64,000 nt of DNA from an uncultured Syntrophobacterales bacterium (lineage in GTDB: Bacteria; Desulfobacterota; Binatia; UBA9968; JAJDTQ01). The stretch's first letter is position 1. Every line of letters starts with the position of its first letter. A model generated the notes under the pieces. The model had not been told where the DNA came from. It did no database searches and was given only the letters and a program-made list of their open reading frames with translations. Position numbers and translations under genes: made by a program. The DNA is taken from the NCBI GenBank assembly GCA_964630405.1, contig CAZVUC010000017.1, positions 48,536-112,535 of the forward strand, given 5' to 3'. Positions 21,195 to 42,244 of the stretch are shown here, one piece after another.

Positions 21195-22199
21195 CTACTT
21201 GCCGCGCTTCGGCAGAAGCTTCGGCAGGAACTCGTTGGTGTAGACGTCCTCCACCGCCGACTTCTTCGGAAGCTTCATGTGCGTGGTGATGAGGTTGTTG
21301 GTGAATACCATGCGGTCCTTGGTCATTTGGCCGATGCCCGCCTTCATGGCGTGGTCGGACAGCAGCGAGTCCACCGCGATGTCGAAGTGCTTCCGCGCCA
21401 GGTCCGGGCTGATGGCCGGGTTGTGCTTGATGAAGATGTCCACGGCCTCCTGCGGGTTCTCCACCGACCAGGCAATGCCCTTGTAGGTGGCGGTCAGAAA
21501 CCGTTTCACCAGGTCCGGCTTGTTCTTGAGGGTGTCCTCGTGCACCATCAGGCCGTTGCCGTAGGTAGCCATGCCGTGGTCGGCGAACAGCAGGTACAGC
21601 GGCTTCTTGCCGACCTTCGCGGCGGCCGCGTCCAGCGTCGGCTTCTCGGTGTAGAAGATGAGGATGGCATCCACCCGTCCGGCCAGGAGGCTCGGGACGG
21701 TGGCGGGCACCGTCATGTTGATCCACTTGACCTTCTTGTCGTCGAACTTGTTGATGTTGGCGAAGGCCGGGAAGATGACCCGCGCGGCGTTGGCCTCGGG
21801 CGAGCCGATCGTCTTTCCTTCGAGGTCCGCCGGCTTGGTGATCTTGTTCCCCACCAGCGTGGCCAGGGTCTCCAGGGTCTTGTCGTGGACCATGCCCACC
21901 ATCTTGAGCTTGGCGCCCCGCGACCGGCCGGCGATCATGTTGCCCACCGAAGCGAAGCCGAAGTCGTCGGTGCCCGAGGCGATGCGCTTCACGGTGTCGC
22001 CGGAGCCGAAGCCTCGGGTCATCTGCACGTCGAGACCCGCTTCCTTCCAGAACCCCTTGTCGATGCTCACGTAGTACATGGCGTGCTTGCCGTAGGGGAT
22101 CCAGTCCAGCGCGAACTTGACCTTGTCCATGGCCGAGGCGCTGCCGATGCCCGTCACGTACAGCAGAAAAATCGCAAGCGCGATGAATATGCGTTTCAT
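21195..22199 (-). CDS. ABC transporter substrate-binding protein, NMT1/THI5 (NitT/TauT) family
   Basis: Signal peptide MKRIFIALAIFLLYVTGIGSASA followed by KVKFALDWIPYGKHAMYYV, typical of SsuA/TauA/NMT1-like SBPs. Confidence 0.75.
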   Translation of the reverse strand: MKRIFIALAIFLLYVTGIGSASAMDKVKFALDWIPYGKHAMYYVSIDKGFWKEAGLDVQMTRGFGSGDTVKRIASGTDDFGFASVGNMIAGRSRGAKLKMVGMVHDKTLETLATLVGNKITKPADLEGKTIGSPEANAARVIFPAFANINKFDDKKVKWINMTVPATVPSLLAGRVDAILIFYTEKPTLDAAAAKVGKKPLYLLFADHGMATYGNGLMVHEDTLKNKPDLVKRFLTATYKGIAWSVENPQEAVDIFIKHNPAISPDLARKHFDIAVDSLLSDHAMKAGIGQMTKDRMVFTNNLITTHMKLPKKSAVEDVYTNEFLPKLLPKRGK

Positions 22200-22239
22200 T
22201 TCCTGTACCTCCCCGCGTTAGAGCGTGTTTGCAACTACC

Positions 22240-23025
22240 TTACAGATACTGCAGCCCGATGGTCTTTCCCACTTGCCTGACGCATTCGGTGAACTCCGCC
22301 GACAACCGCATCTCCGGGGTCCGGGGCCGCGGCAGCCCTATTTTGATGATGTCGGTGATCCGGCCCGGCCGGGGCGTCATCACCATCACCCGGTCGGCCA
22401 GGAAGACCGCTTCGGGGATCGAATGGGTGATCAGCAGGCTGGTCTTCTTCTTTTCGCTCCAGATGCGCTGAAGCTCCATGTTCATCTCGCCCCGGGTCAT
22501 GGCGTCCAGGGCGCCGAAGGGCTCGTCCAGCAACAGCAGCGAAGGGTCGTGCACCAGTGCCCGGCTGATGGACGCGCGCTGCTGCATGCCGCCGGACAAC
22601 TCCCGCGGGTACTTGTCCTTGAACTCCGTGAGTCCGGTCAGCTCCAGCAACTCCAGGGCCTTGGGATAGTATTCATCCTTGGAAAGGCCGAGTATCTCCA
22701 CCGGCAACAGGACGTTGTCGATGACCGAGCGCCACTGAAACAGCACGGGTGTCTGGAACACGATGCCGGTGCTGGACTTGGGCCCCGTCACCGGCGCGCC
22801 GTTCACCAGCACCTCGCCCCGGGTCTTGTCGAGCAGCCCGGCGATGATCTTCATGATCGTGGTCTTGCCGCAGCCGCTGTGGCCCACCAGGGATATGAAC
22901 TCCTGCTCGTAGACCTCGAACGAGGCGTCCTCGAGCGCCACGATGGGCGCATCCTTGGAAGGATACACCTTGGTGAGGCTCCTGACCTCGATGGCTTTCC
23001 CGTTCGTCATGGACATCGATTCCAA
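22240..23025 (-). CDS. ABC transporter ATP-binding protein (NitT/TauT family)
   Basis: Walker A GHSGCGKTT, signature LSGGMQQR and Walker B LLLDEPFGALD; start is ambiguous among three nearby ATGs. Confidence 0.8.
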   Translation of the reverse strand: MESMSMTNGKAIEVRSLTKVYPSKDAPIVALEDASFEVYEQEFISLVGHSGCGKTTIMKIIAGLLDKTRGEVLVNGAPVTGPKSSTGIVFQTPVLFQWRSVIDNVLLPVEILGLSKDEYYPKALELLELTGLTEFKDKYPRELSGGMQQRASISRALVHDPSLLLLDEPFGALDAMTRGEMNMELQRIWSEKKKTSLLITHSIPEAVFLADRVMVMTPRPGRITDIIKIGLPRPRTPEMRLSAEFTECVRQVGKTIGLQYL

Positions 23026-23076
23026 ACTCGATCCGCCCCGGCCGGCCGGATGTTCTCCATCCGCCGGGAGCCGGCC

Positions 23077-23862
23077 TTACATGCCGAAGCCCGTCATCTC
23101 CTGCTCATCCTCGCCGATGCTCCAAGGGATCAACCACATTTCCAGCAGCACCAGGACGCCGTAAAGGACCAGGCCCAGGGCCGACAGCACGACCAGGGCC
23201 GCGAACATGAACGGCGTATTGACCTCGTAGTTGGCGACCATGACCAGGTACCCGAGGCCGGTGTTGCCGCCGACGAATTCGCCGATGATGGCGCCGATGA
23301 CCGCCAGCGTGATGGCGATCTTGAGGCCGCCGAAGAAGTGTGGCAACGCGTTGGGCAGGCGGACCTTGGAGAAGATCTGCCAGTCCGAGGCCTGGAGCGA
23401 CTTGACCAGGTCCAGCATCTCGGGCTGCACCATGCGCATGCCCTGGACCGTGGTGACGATGATGGGGAACCACGAAACCAGGAACGCGATGAGCACCTTG
23501 GACATTTCGCCGTAACCCACCCAGATCAGCAGCAGCGGCGCGATGGCCACCTTGGGAACGATCTGGGCCACGAGGATCAGCGGGTAGAGAAGATTCTGGA
23601 GCAACCGGGAGTAGACGATCATGATGGCCGAGATCACCCCCAGCACGAGCCCCATGAGGAACCCGTAGATGGTTTCCCGGAAGGTCACGAGGCAGTTCTG
23701 CATGAGGGGAAAGAACTTCTCGATGATGGTCCAGAAAATCTTCGACGGCGCGGGCAGCAGGAACTCGGAGACCGAGAACAACCACACCGACACCTCCCAA
23801 AGCAGCGTGAAGAGGATGAGACTGGAGGTGATGGTGCCGAGCTCCTTGAAACGTTCAACCAT
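23077..23862 (-). CDS. ABC transporter permease (SsuC/TauC-like)
   Basis: Six predicted TMS and an EAA-like loop region; sits upstream of the ATPase and SBP genes, forming an operon. Confidence 0.8.
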   Translation of the reverse strand: MVERFKELGTITSSLILFTLLWEVSVWLFSVSEFLLPAPSKIFWTIIEKFFPLMQNCLVTFRETIYGFLMGLVLGVISAIMIVYSRLLQNLLYPLILVAQIVPKVAIAPLLLIWVGYGEMSKVLIAFLVSWFPIIVTTVQGMRMVQPEMLDLVKSLQASDWQIFSKVRLPNALPHFFGGLKIAITLAVIGAIIGEFVGGNTGLGYLVMVANYEVNTPFMFAALVVLSALGLVLYGVLVLLEMWLIPWSIGEDEQEMTGFGM

Positions 23863-24040
23863 TCATTTTCCCCGCATGGCCGACGGCGCACGCCAATCGT
23901 TCAGGACGCCTTCATACCACAAGTTCCCGCGCAAGAAACCCCTAAATGGAATTTTAGCCCGGCGCCACGCCCATTGCCATGGAGCGCATTTGGCGCTACG
24001 GGTAAGACAGCCATCGAAACGACCCGGGAAAGGACGAACC

Positions 24041-24256
24041 ATGCCGGACAAGGTATCGATCTTCGGGCACGACCACTGAGACTACACCGCGAGTGCCCGG
24101 CGGGACTACTCGGACAGAAACATCCCCATCGAATACATCAACGTGCTGGAGGACGAGGACGGCCTCCGGCGCATGATGGACCTCAACGACGGCAGCCGCG
24201 AGATCCCGGTCATCGTGGAGGACGGCAGGGTCACCGTCGGCTTCGGCGGAAGCTGA
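24041..24256 (+). CDS. Glutaredoxin/NrdH-like protein with in-frame TGA at the redox-active position: putative selenoprotein (U-x-x-T)
   Basis: ATG at 24041 reads MPDKVSIFGHDH-TGA-DYTASARRDYSDRNIPIEYINVLEDEDGLRRMMDLNDGSREIPVIVEDGRVTVGFGGS. It aligns colinearly with the Grx fold (VEIYTKETCPYCHRAKALL...TVPQIFIDAQHIGG), and the TGA at 24077 falls exactly on the first Cys of CPYC. A hairpin lies 11 nt downstream. The ORF is missing from the six-frame track because of the TGA. Confidence 0.6.
24090..24112 (+). promoter_or_regulatory. Candidate bacterial SECIS hairpin
   Basis: CGAGU-G-CCC-GGC-GGG-ACU-ACUCG stem-loop starting 11 nt after the in-frame UGA, with a G-rich apical loop as in bSECIS elements. 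Confidence 0.4.
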
Positions 24257-24366
24257 GCGGTGTAGCGGCCGCGGTCGCGGCCGGGAAATTGACTTGCAGC
24301 GGGGTCATCGGATATTCTCCGTCTTGACCGTCGCGTGATTTCACCCGATCCCCTCGGAGGTTTGCG

Positions 24367-25329
24367 ATGATCAAGCACGTCGTTCTCGTGAAGCTGAAGC
24401 CGGACGCCTCCCCCGATCAAATCGACAGGATGATCGAGGGCTACAACTCCATGAAGGAATCCATCCCGGACCTGCTGAGCTGGTCCATGGGAGCGAACCT
24501 GCGCCGTGACGGCGACTACGACTACGCCATGGTGGCCATCTGCGAGGACGCGGAGAGCCTCCAGCGCTACGTGGACCACCCGGTGCACCGGCAGGTGGCC
24601 CAGGAGGTCGGGCGGCCGATCTTCCAGAGCCGGGAGATCGCCGACTACGAGTTCGACCCCGAGGAGGAGATGTGGGAGCCCCAGGTGCAGGAGGTGTGGA
24701 CCGAGCTGTCGGACACGGTCAAGCCCGCGCACACGGCCCTGGTGGTCATCGACGTGCAGAACGACTTCTGCGCCCCCGGCGGCGCGCGCATGAAGGGCGA
24801 CCTGAGCTTCGTCGAGGCCATGCGCGAGCCGTTGAAGGTGATGGTGGAAGCGGCCCGGGCCGCGGGGGTGCCGGTCATCTACACCCAGACCTCCAACGAC
24901 AACGAGCACGACAACGGCCCGATCCTGGCCCGGCGCGCCCGGGTGGGACTGGCCAATGCCAAGTACACCGTCCCGGGGACCCCGGGATGGGACGTCTGCG
25001 ACTTCGTCGCGCCCGCTCCGGAGGACGTCCGGATCAAGAAGTGGCATCACAGCGGCTTCACCAACCCCAGGATGGACTCCACCCTGGGGCGCCTGGGCAT
25101 CAAGACCTTGCTGTTCACGGGCGCCGCCACCAACGGCTGTGTCGAGGCCACGGTGCGGGACGCGTTCGCACGGGGCTACTACAACGTGGTGCTGGAAGAC
25201 TGCGTGGCGGCCTACGACGCCGACTTGCAGCGCTACTCGCTCAAGAACATGGCCACCCATTTCGCGCTCATCAGCACCAGCCGCGAAGTGCAGCGCACAT
25301 GGGCGGAACAGGGGGCGCTGGCGGGCTGA
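24367..25329 (+). CDS. Fusion protein: N-terminal Dabb (stress-responsive alpha-beta barrel) domain plus C-terminal isochorismatase-family cysteine hydrolase
   Basis: Residues 1-95 MIKHVVLVKLKPDASPDQIDRMIEGYNSMKESIPDLL... match the Dabb fold. The remainder carries the isochorismatase triad context VVIDVQNDF (Asp), KK and LLFTGAATNGCVEATVRDA (Cys). GGAGG RBS. Confidence 0.7.
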   Translation: MIKHVVLVKLKPDASPDQIDRMIEGYNSMKESIPDLLSWSMGANLRRDGDYDYAMVAICEDAESLQRYVDHPVHRQVAQEVGRPIFQSREIADYEFDPEEEMWEPQVQEVWTELSDTVKPAHTALVVIDVQNDFCAPGGARMKGDLSFVEAMREPLKVMVEAARAAGVPVIYTQTSNDNEHDNGPILARRARVGLANAKYTVPGTPGWDVCDFVAPAPEDVRIKKWHHSGFTNPRMDSTLGRLGIKTLLFTGAATNGCVEATVRDAFARGYYNVVLEDCVAAYDADLQRYSLKNMATHFALISTSREVQRTWAEQGALAG

Positions 25330-25411: not shown

Positions 25412-26233
25412 ATGGCCACAGCCACAGCCGAGAAACTCGACGACACCGTCGAAGCAAGCTTCAACTACATGGTCCACAAGGGCCCCCGGCCCGTCACCAC
25501 GTTCGAAAAGCCCAGCCTCGGCTACCCGCACAAGGACCGGACGTACGAGACCCACACCGCGCTGGTCCGAAACGGGCGCAACCACCCCGAGCTCTCCGTC
25601 GAGCACCACGGTTTCGCCCTGCGGCCCCAGCCCACGAAAATGACCGACTTCTTCGACGAGGACGAGATACGGGCGGTCTACTATCCCGAGATGGAGGCGC
25701 TGATCAAGGAAAACACCGGCGCCTGCCGGGTGCTGATCTTCGACCACACCTTGCGCTCCGGCTACGAGGAGAAAGGCGCCAAGGGACCGGTCCAGAACGT
25801 GCACAACGACTACACCGAGTGGTCCGGCCCGGAGCGGGTGCGGGACCTGCTGCCGGACGAGGCGGAGGAGTTGCTCAAGAAACGTTTCGCCGTGGTCCAG
25901 GTGTGGCGCGGCATGCTGAACCCGGTCCTGCGGGACCCCCTGGCCATGTGCGACGCCCAGAGCATCGCCACCGAGGACCTCATCCCGACCGTGCGGCCGC
26001 ATCCCAACCGGTTGGGCGAGACCTACCACCTGACCTACAGCCCCGACCACCGGTTCTACTACTTCCCGGACATGCAGCCGGACGAGGCCATCGTCTTCAA
26101 GTGCTACGACTCGAAGACGGACGGACGGGCGCGCTTCTCCGCGCATTCCGCCTTCGAGCATCCCGACACCGCGGAGGACGCGCCGCCGCGGGAGAGCATC
26201 GAGATCCGCACCCTGGCGTTCTTCGACGAATAG
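25412..26233 (+). CDS. Hypothetical protein, possibly a CmcJ/NvfI-family oxidoreductase
   Basis: 273 aa soluble protein with AAAGGAGA RBS; the family assignment is from memory of this family's length and conserved blocks (VQNVHNDYT, YYFPDM) and is weak. Confidence 0.35.
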   Translation: MATATAEKLDDTVEASFNYMVHKGPRPVTTFEKPSLGYPHKDRTYETHTALVRNGRNHPELSVEHHGFALRPQPTKMTDFFDEDEIRAVYYPEMEALIKENTGACRVLIFDHTLRSGYEEKGAKGPVQNVHNDYTEWSGPERVRDLLPDEAEELLKKRFAVVQVWRGMLNPVLRDPLAMCDAQSIATEDLIPTVRPHPNRLGETYHLTYSPDHRFYYFPDMQPDEAIVFKCYDSKTDGRARFSAHSAFEHPDTAEDAPPRESIEIRTLAFFDE

Positions 26234-41650: not shown

Positions 41651-42144
41651 TGGACGGCTCCTCCGACATCGAGTCCCGGGTGGCGGCCGCGCTCGGGGAA
41701 CTCGGCGTTTCCTACGAGCTCGTCCACATCGACCCCGCTTTCGCCGATACCGCGGACTTCTGCGAGCAATACGGCTATCCGATGAAGACCAGCGGCAACA
41801 CCATCATCGTGGCCTCCAAGCGCGGCGAGAAGAAGTACTGCGCATGCATCGTGCAGGCCTCCGCGCGTCTCGACGTGAACCGGACGGTCAAACGGTTGAT
41901 GGGAGTGTCCAGGGCCTCGTTCGCCTCCGCCGAGGAAACCATGGAGTTGACGGGTATGATGATCGGCGGCGTCACCGCGTTCGCCCTGCCCCCGGACCTT
42001 CCAATCTACGCCGACCCGAACCTGCGGTCGCAAGAGTACGTCATCCTCGGTTCCGGCAGCCGCTCGTCCAAGATCAAGATCTCGCCCGGGGACATCGGCA
42101 AGATACCCGGCGCGCGGTTCATCGACGGGCTGGCGATGTCGTAA
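41650..42144 (+). CDS. YbaK/ProX-type aminoacyl-tRNA deacylase-like protein
   Basis: 164 aa YbaK-like fold, with GVTAFALPPDLPIYAD and KISPGD motifs; its ATG overlaps the upstream TGA (ATGA), implying translational coupling. Confidence 0.65.
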   Translation: MDGSSDIESRVAAALGELGVSYELVHIDPAFADTADFCEQYGYPMKTSGNTIIVASKRGEKKYCACIVQASARLDVNRTVKRLMGVSRASFASAEETMELTGMMIGGVTAFALPPDLPIYADPNLRSQEYVILGSGSRSSKIKISPGDIGKIPGARFIDGLAMS

Positions 42145-42244
42145 GGGACGGGTTTCAAAACTCGGGACTGGATGGCACCCGGGTGTTCTAGTGAGACCTA
42201 GTGAGACCCGTGGAAGGTTCTTGGAAGAGGCGCGGAGGGTATGG

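Follow-up and report, generated by a model that had tools for sequence, protein, structure and literature searches.

Does a short open reading frame (ORF) that is interrupted by an in-frame TGA encode a selenoprotein, and, if it does, where does that protein end? The question is raised by a locus on the forward strand of contig CAZVUC010000017.1 (assembly GCA_964630405.1), from an uncultured Syntrophobacterales bacterium of the class Binatia. The stretch of the contig that was analyzed is 64,000 nucleotides long; it is called the window here, and positions are counted from its first letter. A first-pass annotation made from the letters of the window had described a hidden glutaredoxin-like protein of 71 residues with one selenocysteine (Sec, U). 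We find that the gene, at 24041-24265, is very probably a genuine selenoprotein gene of a family that has already been curated, UXX-star selenoprotein family 1, and whose function is biochemically uncharacterized. Its product is in all likelihood a protein of 74 residues with two Sec residues, each UGA being recoded through a Sec insertion sequence (SECIS) of its own. The initial reading of a glutaredoxin-like protein with Sec at the CxxC position and a SECIS on its 3' side therefore stood, but the end of the gene had been misplaced and the second UGA overlooked.

Translation from the ATG at 24041 on the plus strand meets a TGA at codon 13 (24077-24079) and another at codon 72 (24254-24256). 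The ATG, the TGA at 24077, and the translation proved to be as first quoted when they were re-read from the sequence. The ORF had been closed at the TGA of codon 72, however, and there the frame runs on through GCG GTG to TAG, so that the coding sequence (CDS) finishes with U-A-V-stop at 24265. Apart from the first TGA, the frame has no further internal stops up to the second one, and it has no frameshifts. The GC fractions at the three codon positions, read in the same frame, are 0.58/0.25/0.92 for codons 1 to 12 and 0.62/0.40/0.93 for codons 14 to 71, a pattern that matches the confident genes of the window (GC content of 66%). Codon differences beyond the first UGA comprise 179 synonymous and 158 nonsynonymous ones. 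TGA is the commonest stop codon of the confident genes of the window, ending 20 of the 38, and a reassigned genetic code in which TGA is a sense codon is thereby excluded.

One scan of the species genomes of GTDB returned 61 related loci of 12 kb each, which are cited by number where needed (L001 and so on). Codon counts cover the 54 loci in which the family motif could be located. They represent at least six phyla and include Binatia, Acidobacteriota, Methylomirabilota, Gemmatimonadota, Zixibacteria, Pseudodesulfovibrio (Desulfovibrionales), and Blastocatellia, among others; the closest are Binatia metagenome-assembled genomes with 94% identity. At the codon aligned with 24077 (site 1), TGA is present in 33 loci, TGC in 11, and TGT in 10, while TAA and TAG never occur. 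The first-pass annotation had named TGA or a Cys codon in the orthologs as the expected pattern, and the division into 33 TGA and 21 Cys codons agrees with a Sec/Cys pair. The residue three positions after the TGA is Thr in every TGA form. UDYT is typical of the Binatia clade to which the window copy belongs, and UPYT is found in most other phyla. The protein sequence on the 3' side of the first UGA is conserved across phyla, and the gene has none of the extra stops or frameshifts that the same annotation had given, for orthologs, as the mark of a pseudogene.

All 54 loci have TGA at the codon aligned with 24254 (site 2), and a Cys codon, TAA, or TAG never occurs there. This codon is separated from the next stop by exactly two sense codons (three in Blastocatellia), and that stop is variable, being TAG in 27 loci, TGA in 22, and TAA in 5. 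Of the 33 Sec forms, 32 end in Val, and the four synonymous codons used for it indicate that the codons past the second UGA are under protein-level selection. Complete Binatia chromosomes with TGA at both sites include OY762897.2, OZ220710.1, and OX638375.1. A large protein database holds 91 clusters of the family, which end exactly at GFGG[TSGA] except for two that are read with W at site 2; Cys was found at the C-terminal Sec site neither in these 91 clusters nor in the 54 loci, a lack that is unusual for a Sec site but in keeping with the name of the family. Two database proteins, P0004 (JGI) and P0014 (ENA), carry Trp at both UGAs (...HWDYT...GGSW and ...LWPYT...GFGGSWEV, respectively). 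They are evidently the double selenoprotein, mis-annotated by pipelines that applied a code in which TGA is Trp. The invariant TGA, the two (rarely three) sense codons, the free choice of the following stop, and the covarying GGUC hairpin described next together argue that the UGA at 24254 is very probably a second Sec codon.

The hairpin at site 2 starts just past the TAG, in the 3' untranslated region, and has a folding energy of -15.5 kcal/mol (z = -2.44). An equivalent GC-rich hairpin with a stem of 5 to 9 bp follows site 2 in 53 of the 54 loci, compared to 9.9% of control TGA trinucleotides from the same loci, and its loop starts 19 to 30 nucleotides from the U of the UGA. GU occurs in the loop in 46 of the 54 loci (2.2% of the controls), and the full GGUC occurs in 30. 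The 5' stem comes in 35 different sequences. When the 30 GGUC hairpins were aligned on their loops, all seven base pairs had compensatory changes, and 93.7% of the cells were paired. The covariation score of this alignment was 0.842, against 0.219 for shuffled alignments (0 of 500 as high) and no more than 0.277 for slid registers; it has to be counted against these values that the hairpins were selected by hand, which leans the alignment towards structure. A covariance model built from it (R1) has its sole hit in the window at 24266-24283 and recovers two site-2 hairpins on which it had not been trained. Over 674 kb, the other hits of R1 lacked an in-frame TGA, and no further TGA-linked hairpin was found. 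No terminator-like site was present in the scanned region. From the sequence comparison, we regard its assignment as a SECIS (SECIS 2) as well supported.

At site 1, the evidence is of a different kind. The hairpin that the first-pass annotation had offered as a bacterial SECIS, CGAGU-G-CCC-GGC-GGG-ACU-ACUCG, is present as written; its first nucleotide is the 11th one past the UGA. The silent sites of its loop are constrained, but the hairpin taken alone is no stabler than shuffled sequence. Counting from the U of the UGA, all 33 Sec forms use GCC for the Ala at nucleotides 19 to 21, compared to 49% of the Ala codons elsewhere in these genes. For the Arg at nucleotides 22 to 24, the same forms use CGU in 22 cases, CGG in 10, and CGC in none, compared to 5% CGU and 38% CGC elsewhere. 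Fisher tests on sequences that are not independent gave p values of ~1e-8 for Ala and ~1e-14 for Arg. These fixed GCC and CGU codons fix C20 and C21 and place G23-U24 in the apical loop; C20-G28 can pair in all 33 Sec forms, and C21-G27 can in 31 of them. G23-U24 are the positions contacted by SelB in the fdhF SECIS of Escherichia coli. The loop of the window copy has G23-G24 and not G23-U24. Cys forms outside Binatia lack the constraint: their Ala codon is GCA, GCU, GCG, or GCC, and at the Arg site they mostly have AAG, AAA, CUG, or CGC. The silent-site constraint is restricted to the Sec forms and to their recent Cys derivatives. This comparative silent-site bias makes the element a probable SECIS (SECIS 1).

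The recent Cys derivatives are found in Binatia, where the nearest relatives of the window copy (L001-L005, 90 to 94% identity) have TGC or TGT at site 1. A rough neighbor-joining tree was made from the linked CmcJ-like gene of the Binatia loci L001-L021. In this tree, the Cys forms L001-5, L008, L009, and L011 are scattered among the Sec forms, and the deeper Binatia branches all have TGA at site 1. Sec at site 1 therefore looks ancestral and Cys derived. The pattern suggests several recent switches from Sec to Cys within Binatia, with the SECIS-like hairpin left behind as a relic.

The family assignment rests on several models. With U written as C, the protein scores 99.7 bits with the NCBIfam model NF041114 "UXX-star selenoprotein family 1" (cutoff of 72) and covers positions 1 to 70 of its 70. 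Without the last three residues, it scores 91.9 bits over positions 1 to 67, so the tail residues lift the score. With the same replacement, the Pfam model Glutaredoxin (PF00462) gives 26.7 bits against a cutoff of 22.9. In E. coli Grx2, the counterpart of residue 13 is the first Cys of the CPYC motif, and the best similarity to a PDB sequence is marginal (E = 0.002). In the Grx2 alignment, the TGA thus takes the place of the first Cys of CxxC and gives a UxxT motif, as originally stated. Other models fit less well: the protein reaches 38.7 to 54.3 bits with the UXX-star models NF041211, NF047338, and NF045501 (cutoffs of 97 to 325 bits), and among the glutaredoxin equivalogs (the GRX_bact, NrdH, and mycoredoxin set) it has 24.1 bits with TIGR02181, 24.4 with TIGR02194, and ~31 with TIGR02200, below cutoffs of 86 to 90. 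A score above the hidden Markov model cutoff, the U-x-x-star end, the UxxT motif, and a glutaredoxin-type fold together define the gene as a member of a known family, UXX-star family 1, in a lineage in which this family is already annotated. Homologs at NCBI already carry the name 'UXX-star (seleno)protein family 1 [Candidatus Binatia bacterium]'.

The family is also found in the literature. A 2026 AEM review (PMC13188914) lists NF041114 with the motif UxxT and 2 Sec, and a 2022 review (PMC9312934) places the same family under UxxT; 'Distant Grx-like protein 1' is its alternative name (PMC13188914, PMC9312934). Haft & Tolstoy 2025 (as cited in PMC13188914) is the source given for UXX-star families 2 and 3 and for the HUGP/GUXX-star fusion (NF041211, NF047338, and NF045501). 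A literature search combining Binatia or Binatota with selenocysteine had no match.

For the fold, an AlphaFold2 model was made from a Cys ortholog that is 96% identical (P0001), with 63 aligned homologs; it covers the protein without its three-residue tail. The mean predicted local distance difference test score (pLDDT) is 92.5. Strands at residues 5-9, 30-34, 57-60, and 63-66 and helices at 14-25 and 39-48 make up the model, and no helix follows the strand at 63-66. Foldseek matched it to glutaredoxins, Clostridium cGrx1, methanoredoxin, BC3987, and NrdH with template modeling (TM) scores of ~0.8 and root mean square deviations of 1.2 to 2.1 Å. The modeled structure is a minimal glutaredoxin fold, beta-alpha-beta-alpha-beta-beta, without the C-terminal helix.

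We propose that each UGA would be recoded by SelB and Sec-tRNA(Sec) as directed by its own SECIS. SECIS 1 would be a weak element inside the CDS whose loop spans nucleotides 22 to 26 after the UGA, and SECIS 2 would be a strong GGUC-loop hairpin starting directly after the real stop. The fixed U-x-x-stop spacing would allow the stop codon to fall within the spacer that separates the UGA from the hairpin, which would leave the SelB-binding hairpin free of coding constraint. Glutaredoxin structures have the loop that follows strand 4 on the same face as the active site. Judging from this topology, the tail would leave after beta4 on that face with Sec72 near Sec13, and Sec72 would be able to reach Sec13. 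The two may then form a Sec13-Sec72 diselenide, or a selenenylsulfide in orthologs with Cys13, and this bond would make up for the lack of a resolving Cys, at whose position Thr16 stands. The protein would then be a small redox carrier or would bind metals or metalloids, with the invariant C-terminal Sec as its essential reactive residue; that the tail Sec is never Cys, while Cys forms of site 1 are scattered, suggests that it is the indispensable residue. Tentatively, and with doubts that outweigh our confidence, we suggest that an intramolecular diselenide links the active site to the three-residue tail, in which the C-terminal Sec, and not the classical N-terminal position, would be the indispensable reactive center, giving either a very low-potential Se-Se couple or an Se2 metal or metalloid site; a role as a metal or metalloid ligand is just as possible. 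What counts against the diselenide chemistry is its derivation from fold topology, with a model that holds no coordinates for the tail.

Several results weigh against the reading of two Sec residues with one SECIS each. RNAalifold found 0 pairs in a MAFFT alignment of site 2, where the hairpins are offset between clades, and 0 pairs in an in-register alignment of the 33 Sec forms at site 1, because the register of the lower stem differs between clades. The site-1 hairpin was no stabler than dinucleotide shuffles (z = -0.35 and -0.59), nor was it significantly so against synonymous-codon shuffles (mean z = -0.35). Rfam gave no SECIS match at the gathering threshold in the window or at an E value of <= 10 in 24000-24340, where the hits were chance ones below 16 bits. 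Gene neighborhood is conserved in the close Binatia relatives (L001-L021), with nothing common to the other phyla. Might the protein then hold one Sec, with the TGA at 24254 as a true stop after 71 residues and the downstream hairpin as an unrelated mRNA stabilizer or terminator? TGA is indeed the commonest stop of the window, gene callers end at GFGG[ST] in 89 of the 91 database clusters, and GC-rich hairpins are often seen behind stop codons. A genuine stop at 24254, however, would hardly stay TGA in every locus while the stop after it varies among TAG, TGA, and TAA, nor would it be followed by a fixed two (three in Blastocatellia) sense codons whose hydrophobic last residue is kept through synonymous changes. 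The NF041114 profile includes the tail residues, the hairpin loop is GGUC in 30 of the 54 loci, and the scanned region holds nothing terminator-like, and we consider this explanation highly improbable. A pseudogene, in which the TGA at 24077 would be a nonsense mutation in a formerly Cys-type glutaredoxin-like gene, is suggested by the nearest relatives, since these have TGC or TGT at the codon and a change from TGY to TGA takes one base. Against it, TGA stands at this codon in 33 loci from several phyla and is never replaced by TAA or TAG, and the deeper Binatia branches all have TGA in the rough tree of the linked gene. The frame past the TGA has no other stops or frameshifts, a GC content of 0.93 at third codon positions (GC3), and a conserved protein sequence, and the silent sites of the SECIS loop are constrained in exactly the Sec forms and recent Cys derivatives. 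We give this explanation next to no weight.

The machinery for Sec insertion is the other point on which the evidence runs against two Sec residues. A tblastn search with E. coli SelA, SelB, and SelD as queries had no match in the 64 kb of the window or in any of the 61 related loci, and ARAGORN found no tRNA-Sec in the same sequences, where it reported one tRNA-Leu only. This absence favors a read-through without selenium, by near-cognate insertion of Trp or Cys or by some local recoding, and so do the two public pipelines that gave TGA as Trp for P0004 and P0014. The W translations, however, are code assignments of those pipelines and not evidence, and TGA ends more than half of the confident genes of the window. 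Site 1 alternates with Cys codons exclusively, the classic Sec/Cys pair, and both UGAs are followed by hairpins with G-U loops at a SECIS-like distance; we judge selenium-free read-through to be very unlikely. All three explanations would gain if the genome turned out to be without Sec machinery. For the two-Sec reading, we infer Sec decoding in the source organism from the recoding signature. Two scans of the window, one for interrupted ORFs on the basis of GC3 and one for TGA followed by a hairpin with a GU loop, found no further UGA-interrupted genes; apart from the known sites, their output consisted of antisense shadow frames.

The coordinates of the gene, of its predicted elements, and of the neighboring features are collected in Table 1.

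Table 1. Features of the two-UGA gene and its surroundings in the window
Feature	Position	Strand	Remarks
SsuA/TauT-type ABC transporter	21195-23862	-	Upstream, divergent; sulfonate/taurine type
Shine-Dalgarno-like sequence GGGAAAGGA (predicted from the letters)	24026-24034	+	Ends 6 nt 5' of the ATG
Full CDS, UXX-star family 1 selenoprotein	24041-24265	+	74 codons and TAG; 225 nt; predicted product MPDKVSIFGHDH-U-DYTASARRDY...VTVGFGGS-U-AV
UGA 1, predicted Sec13	24077-24079	+	At the first Cys of CxxC; motif U-D-Y-T
Putative SECIS 1	24090-24112	+	In coding region; lower stem 24090-94/24108-12; upper CC/GG pairs 24096-97/24103-04; apical loop 24098-24102, with G23 G24 counted from the U of the UGA
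UGA 2, predicted Sec72	24254-24256	+	Stop codon of the first-pass annotation
Ala73, Val74, and true stop TAG	24257-24265	+	With UGA 2, forms the U-x-x-stop ('UXX-star') motif
SECIS 2 (predicted)	24266-24283	+	Just past the TAG, 3' untranslated region; 7-bp stem CGGCCGC/GCGGCCG; apical loop GGUC at 24273-24276
Sigma-70-like element TTGACT-16-GATATT	24289-24316	+	Just after the site-2 hairpin
Dabb-isochorismatase fusion gene	24367-25329	+	Downstream, same strand
CmcJ/NvfI family oxidoreductase gene	25412-26233	+	
Gene for a small RRM_1 protein	44101-44514	+	78 bits

Compared to other members of UXX-star family 1 (NF041114), the window protein is the same in its ~70 residues, glutaredoxin fold, UxxT motif, U-x-x-stop end, and two Sec. 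It differs in the UDYT of its Binatia clade and in the G23 G24 loop, and in nothing essential. UXX-star families 2 and 3 and HUGP/GUXX-star have the same glutaredoxin-like domain and C-terminal U-x-x-stop, but the scores of the window protein are far below their cutoffs. Related CPYC-type proteins of Zixibacteria and Blastocatellia have the full CxxC and the tails G-U-G-I/F and G-U-T-V-H, respectively. Beside the CPYC-type gene of Zixibacteria, we observed Proton_antipo_M genes (Mrp antiporter/NADH-quinone oxidoreductase; L042:243-1832, L043:6247-7698, and L052:6265-7710). ORFs of L009, L044, L046, L047, and L055 are in the same Proton_antipo_M BLAST cluster, in which Pfam was checked for the three Zixibacteria ORFs only. 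A link between the Mrp/Nuo-type genes and the function of the CPYC subgroup is possible.

Dithiol glutaredoxins, NrdH, methanoredoxin, and Clostridium cGrx1 (7c10, 7c12) share the fold with the window protein and have the active site at the N terminus of helix 1. The conserved Pro before strand 3 and the GG after strand 4 are further likenesses to glutaredoxins. In contrast to these proteins, the window protein has Thr for the resolving Cys, lacks the C-terminal helix, and would carry a second Sec on a short tail.

A C-terminal Gly-Cys-Sec-Gly tail is present in mammalian thioredoxin reductase, and engineered 'UGA-codon-stop-SECIS' cassettes have been used for its expression in E. coli. In that enzyme, too, a Sec of the penultimate type sits on a flexible tail at the C terminus and exchanges redox equivalents with a buried center, and in the cassettes the SECIS hairpin likewise comes after the stop, at a fixed distance from the UGA. 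The window case differs in being natural, bacterial, and of 74 residues, and the partner of its tail Sec would be a Sec or Cys in the same domain rather than a Cys of the tail.

The fdhF SECIS of E. coli has G23/U24 and a GGUC loop. The elements described here resemble it in a hairpin that starts from ~10 nucleotides after the UGA, in the GGUC loop at site 2, and in G23-U24 in most site-1 elements. They differ from it in that the site-2 loop of the window starts at nucleotide 20, ~2 nucleotides closer to the UGA, and in that the upper stem at site 1 is 2 to 3 bp long, with a lower-stem register that varies between clades.

The divergent ATP-binding cassette (ABC) transporter upstream of the gene (Table 1) was considered as a candidate for the Sao system and rejected. 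SaoP, a selenoprotein-associated transporter, is the best NCBIfam match of its permease, but at 115.7 bits it is far below the cutoff of 295; SaoX has 42.4 bits (cutoff of 300), and the substrate-binding protein fits SsuA/TauT better. Downstream, the CmcJ/NvfI family oxidoreductase scores 297.8 bits with its NCBIfam model (cutoff of 80) and has no Pfam match. Its gene is the sole neighbor that is kept downstream in all 21 Binatia loci, even in those without the Dabb-isochorismatase gene. The sequence GGAAAUUGACUUGC is conserved in many Binatia loci at the place equivalent to that of the sigma-70-like element of the window, which is probably the promoter of the Dabb-isochorismatase gene. With such a promoter downstream, the selenoprotein gene may be monocistronic. 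What appeared to be the top neighborhood cluster was an antisense shadow ORF of the selenoprotein gene itself and was discarded. As synteny is limited to the close Binatia relatives, the context gives no functional clue.

Elsewhere in the window, the regions 41975-43620 and 50730-52000 contain no ORF with a coding GC3 pattern, and their longest ORFs have no Pfam match. One gene encodes a small protein with an RRM_1 domain (Table 1); bacterial RRM proteins are known, though they are not common.

Standard gene finders miss or truncate genes of this kind, and the correct CDS here is 24041-24265 with two predicted Sec codons. Two different SECIS architectures would be found within a single gene of 225 nucleotides. 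A gene with two such UGAs implies that the source organism decodes UGA as Sec, and other UGA-containing genes may exist elsewhere in its genome. The invariant tail Sec and the apparent repeated change from Sec to Cys at site 1 offer hypotheses for biochemistry and leave the classification unchanged. Discovery potential lies solely in the proposed chemistry of the Sec pair: if it is true, the pair would be a natural minimal analog of the Sec tail of thioredoxin reductase, produced by way of a naturally occurring SECIS in the 3' untranslated region.

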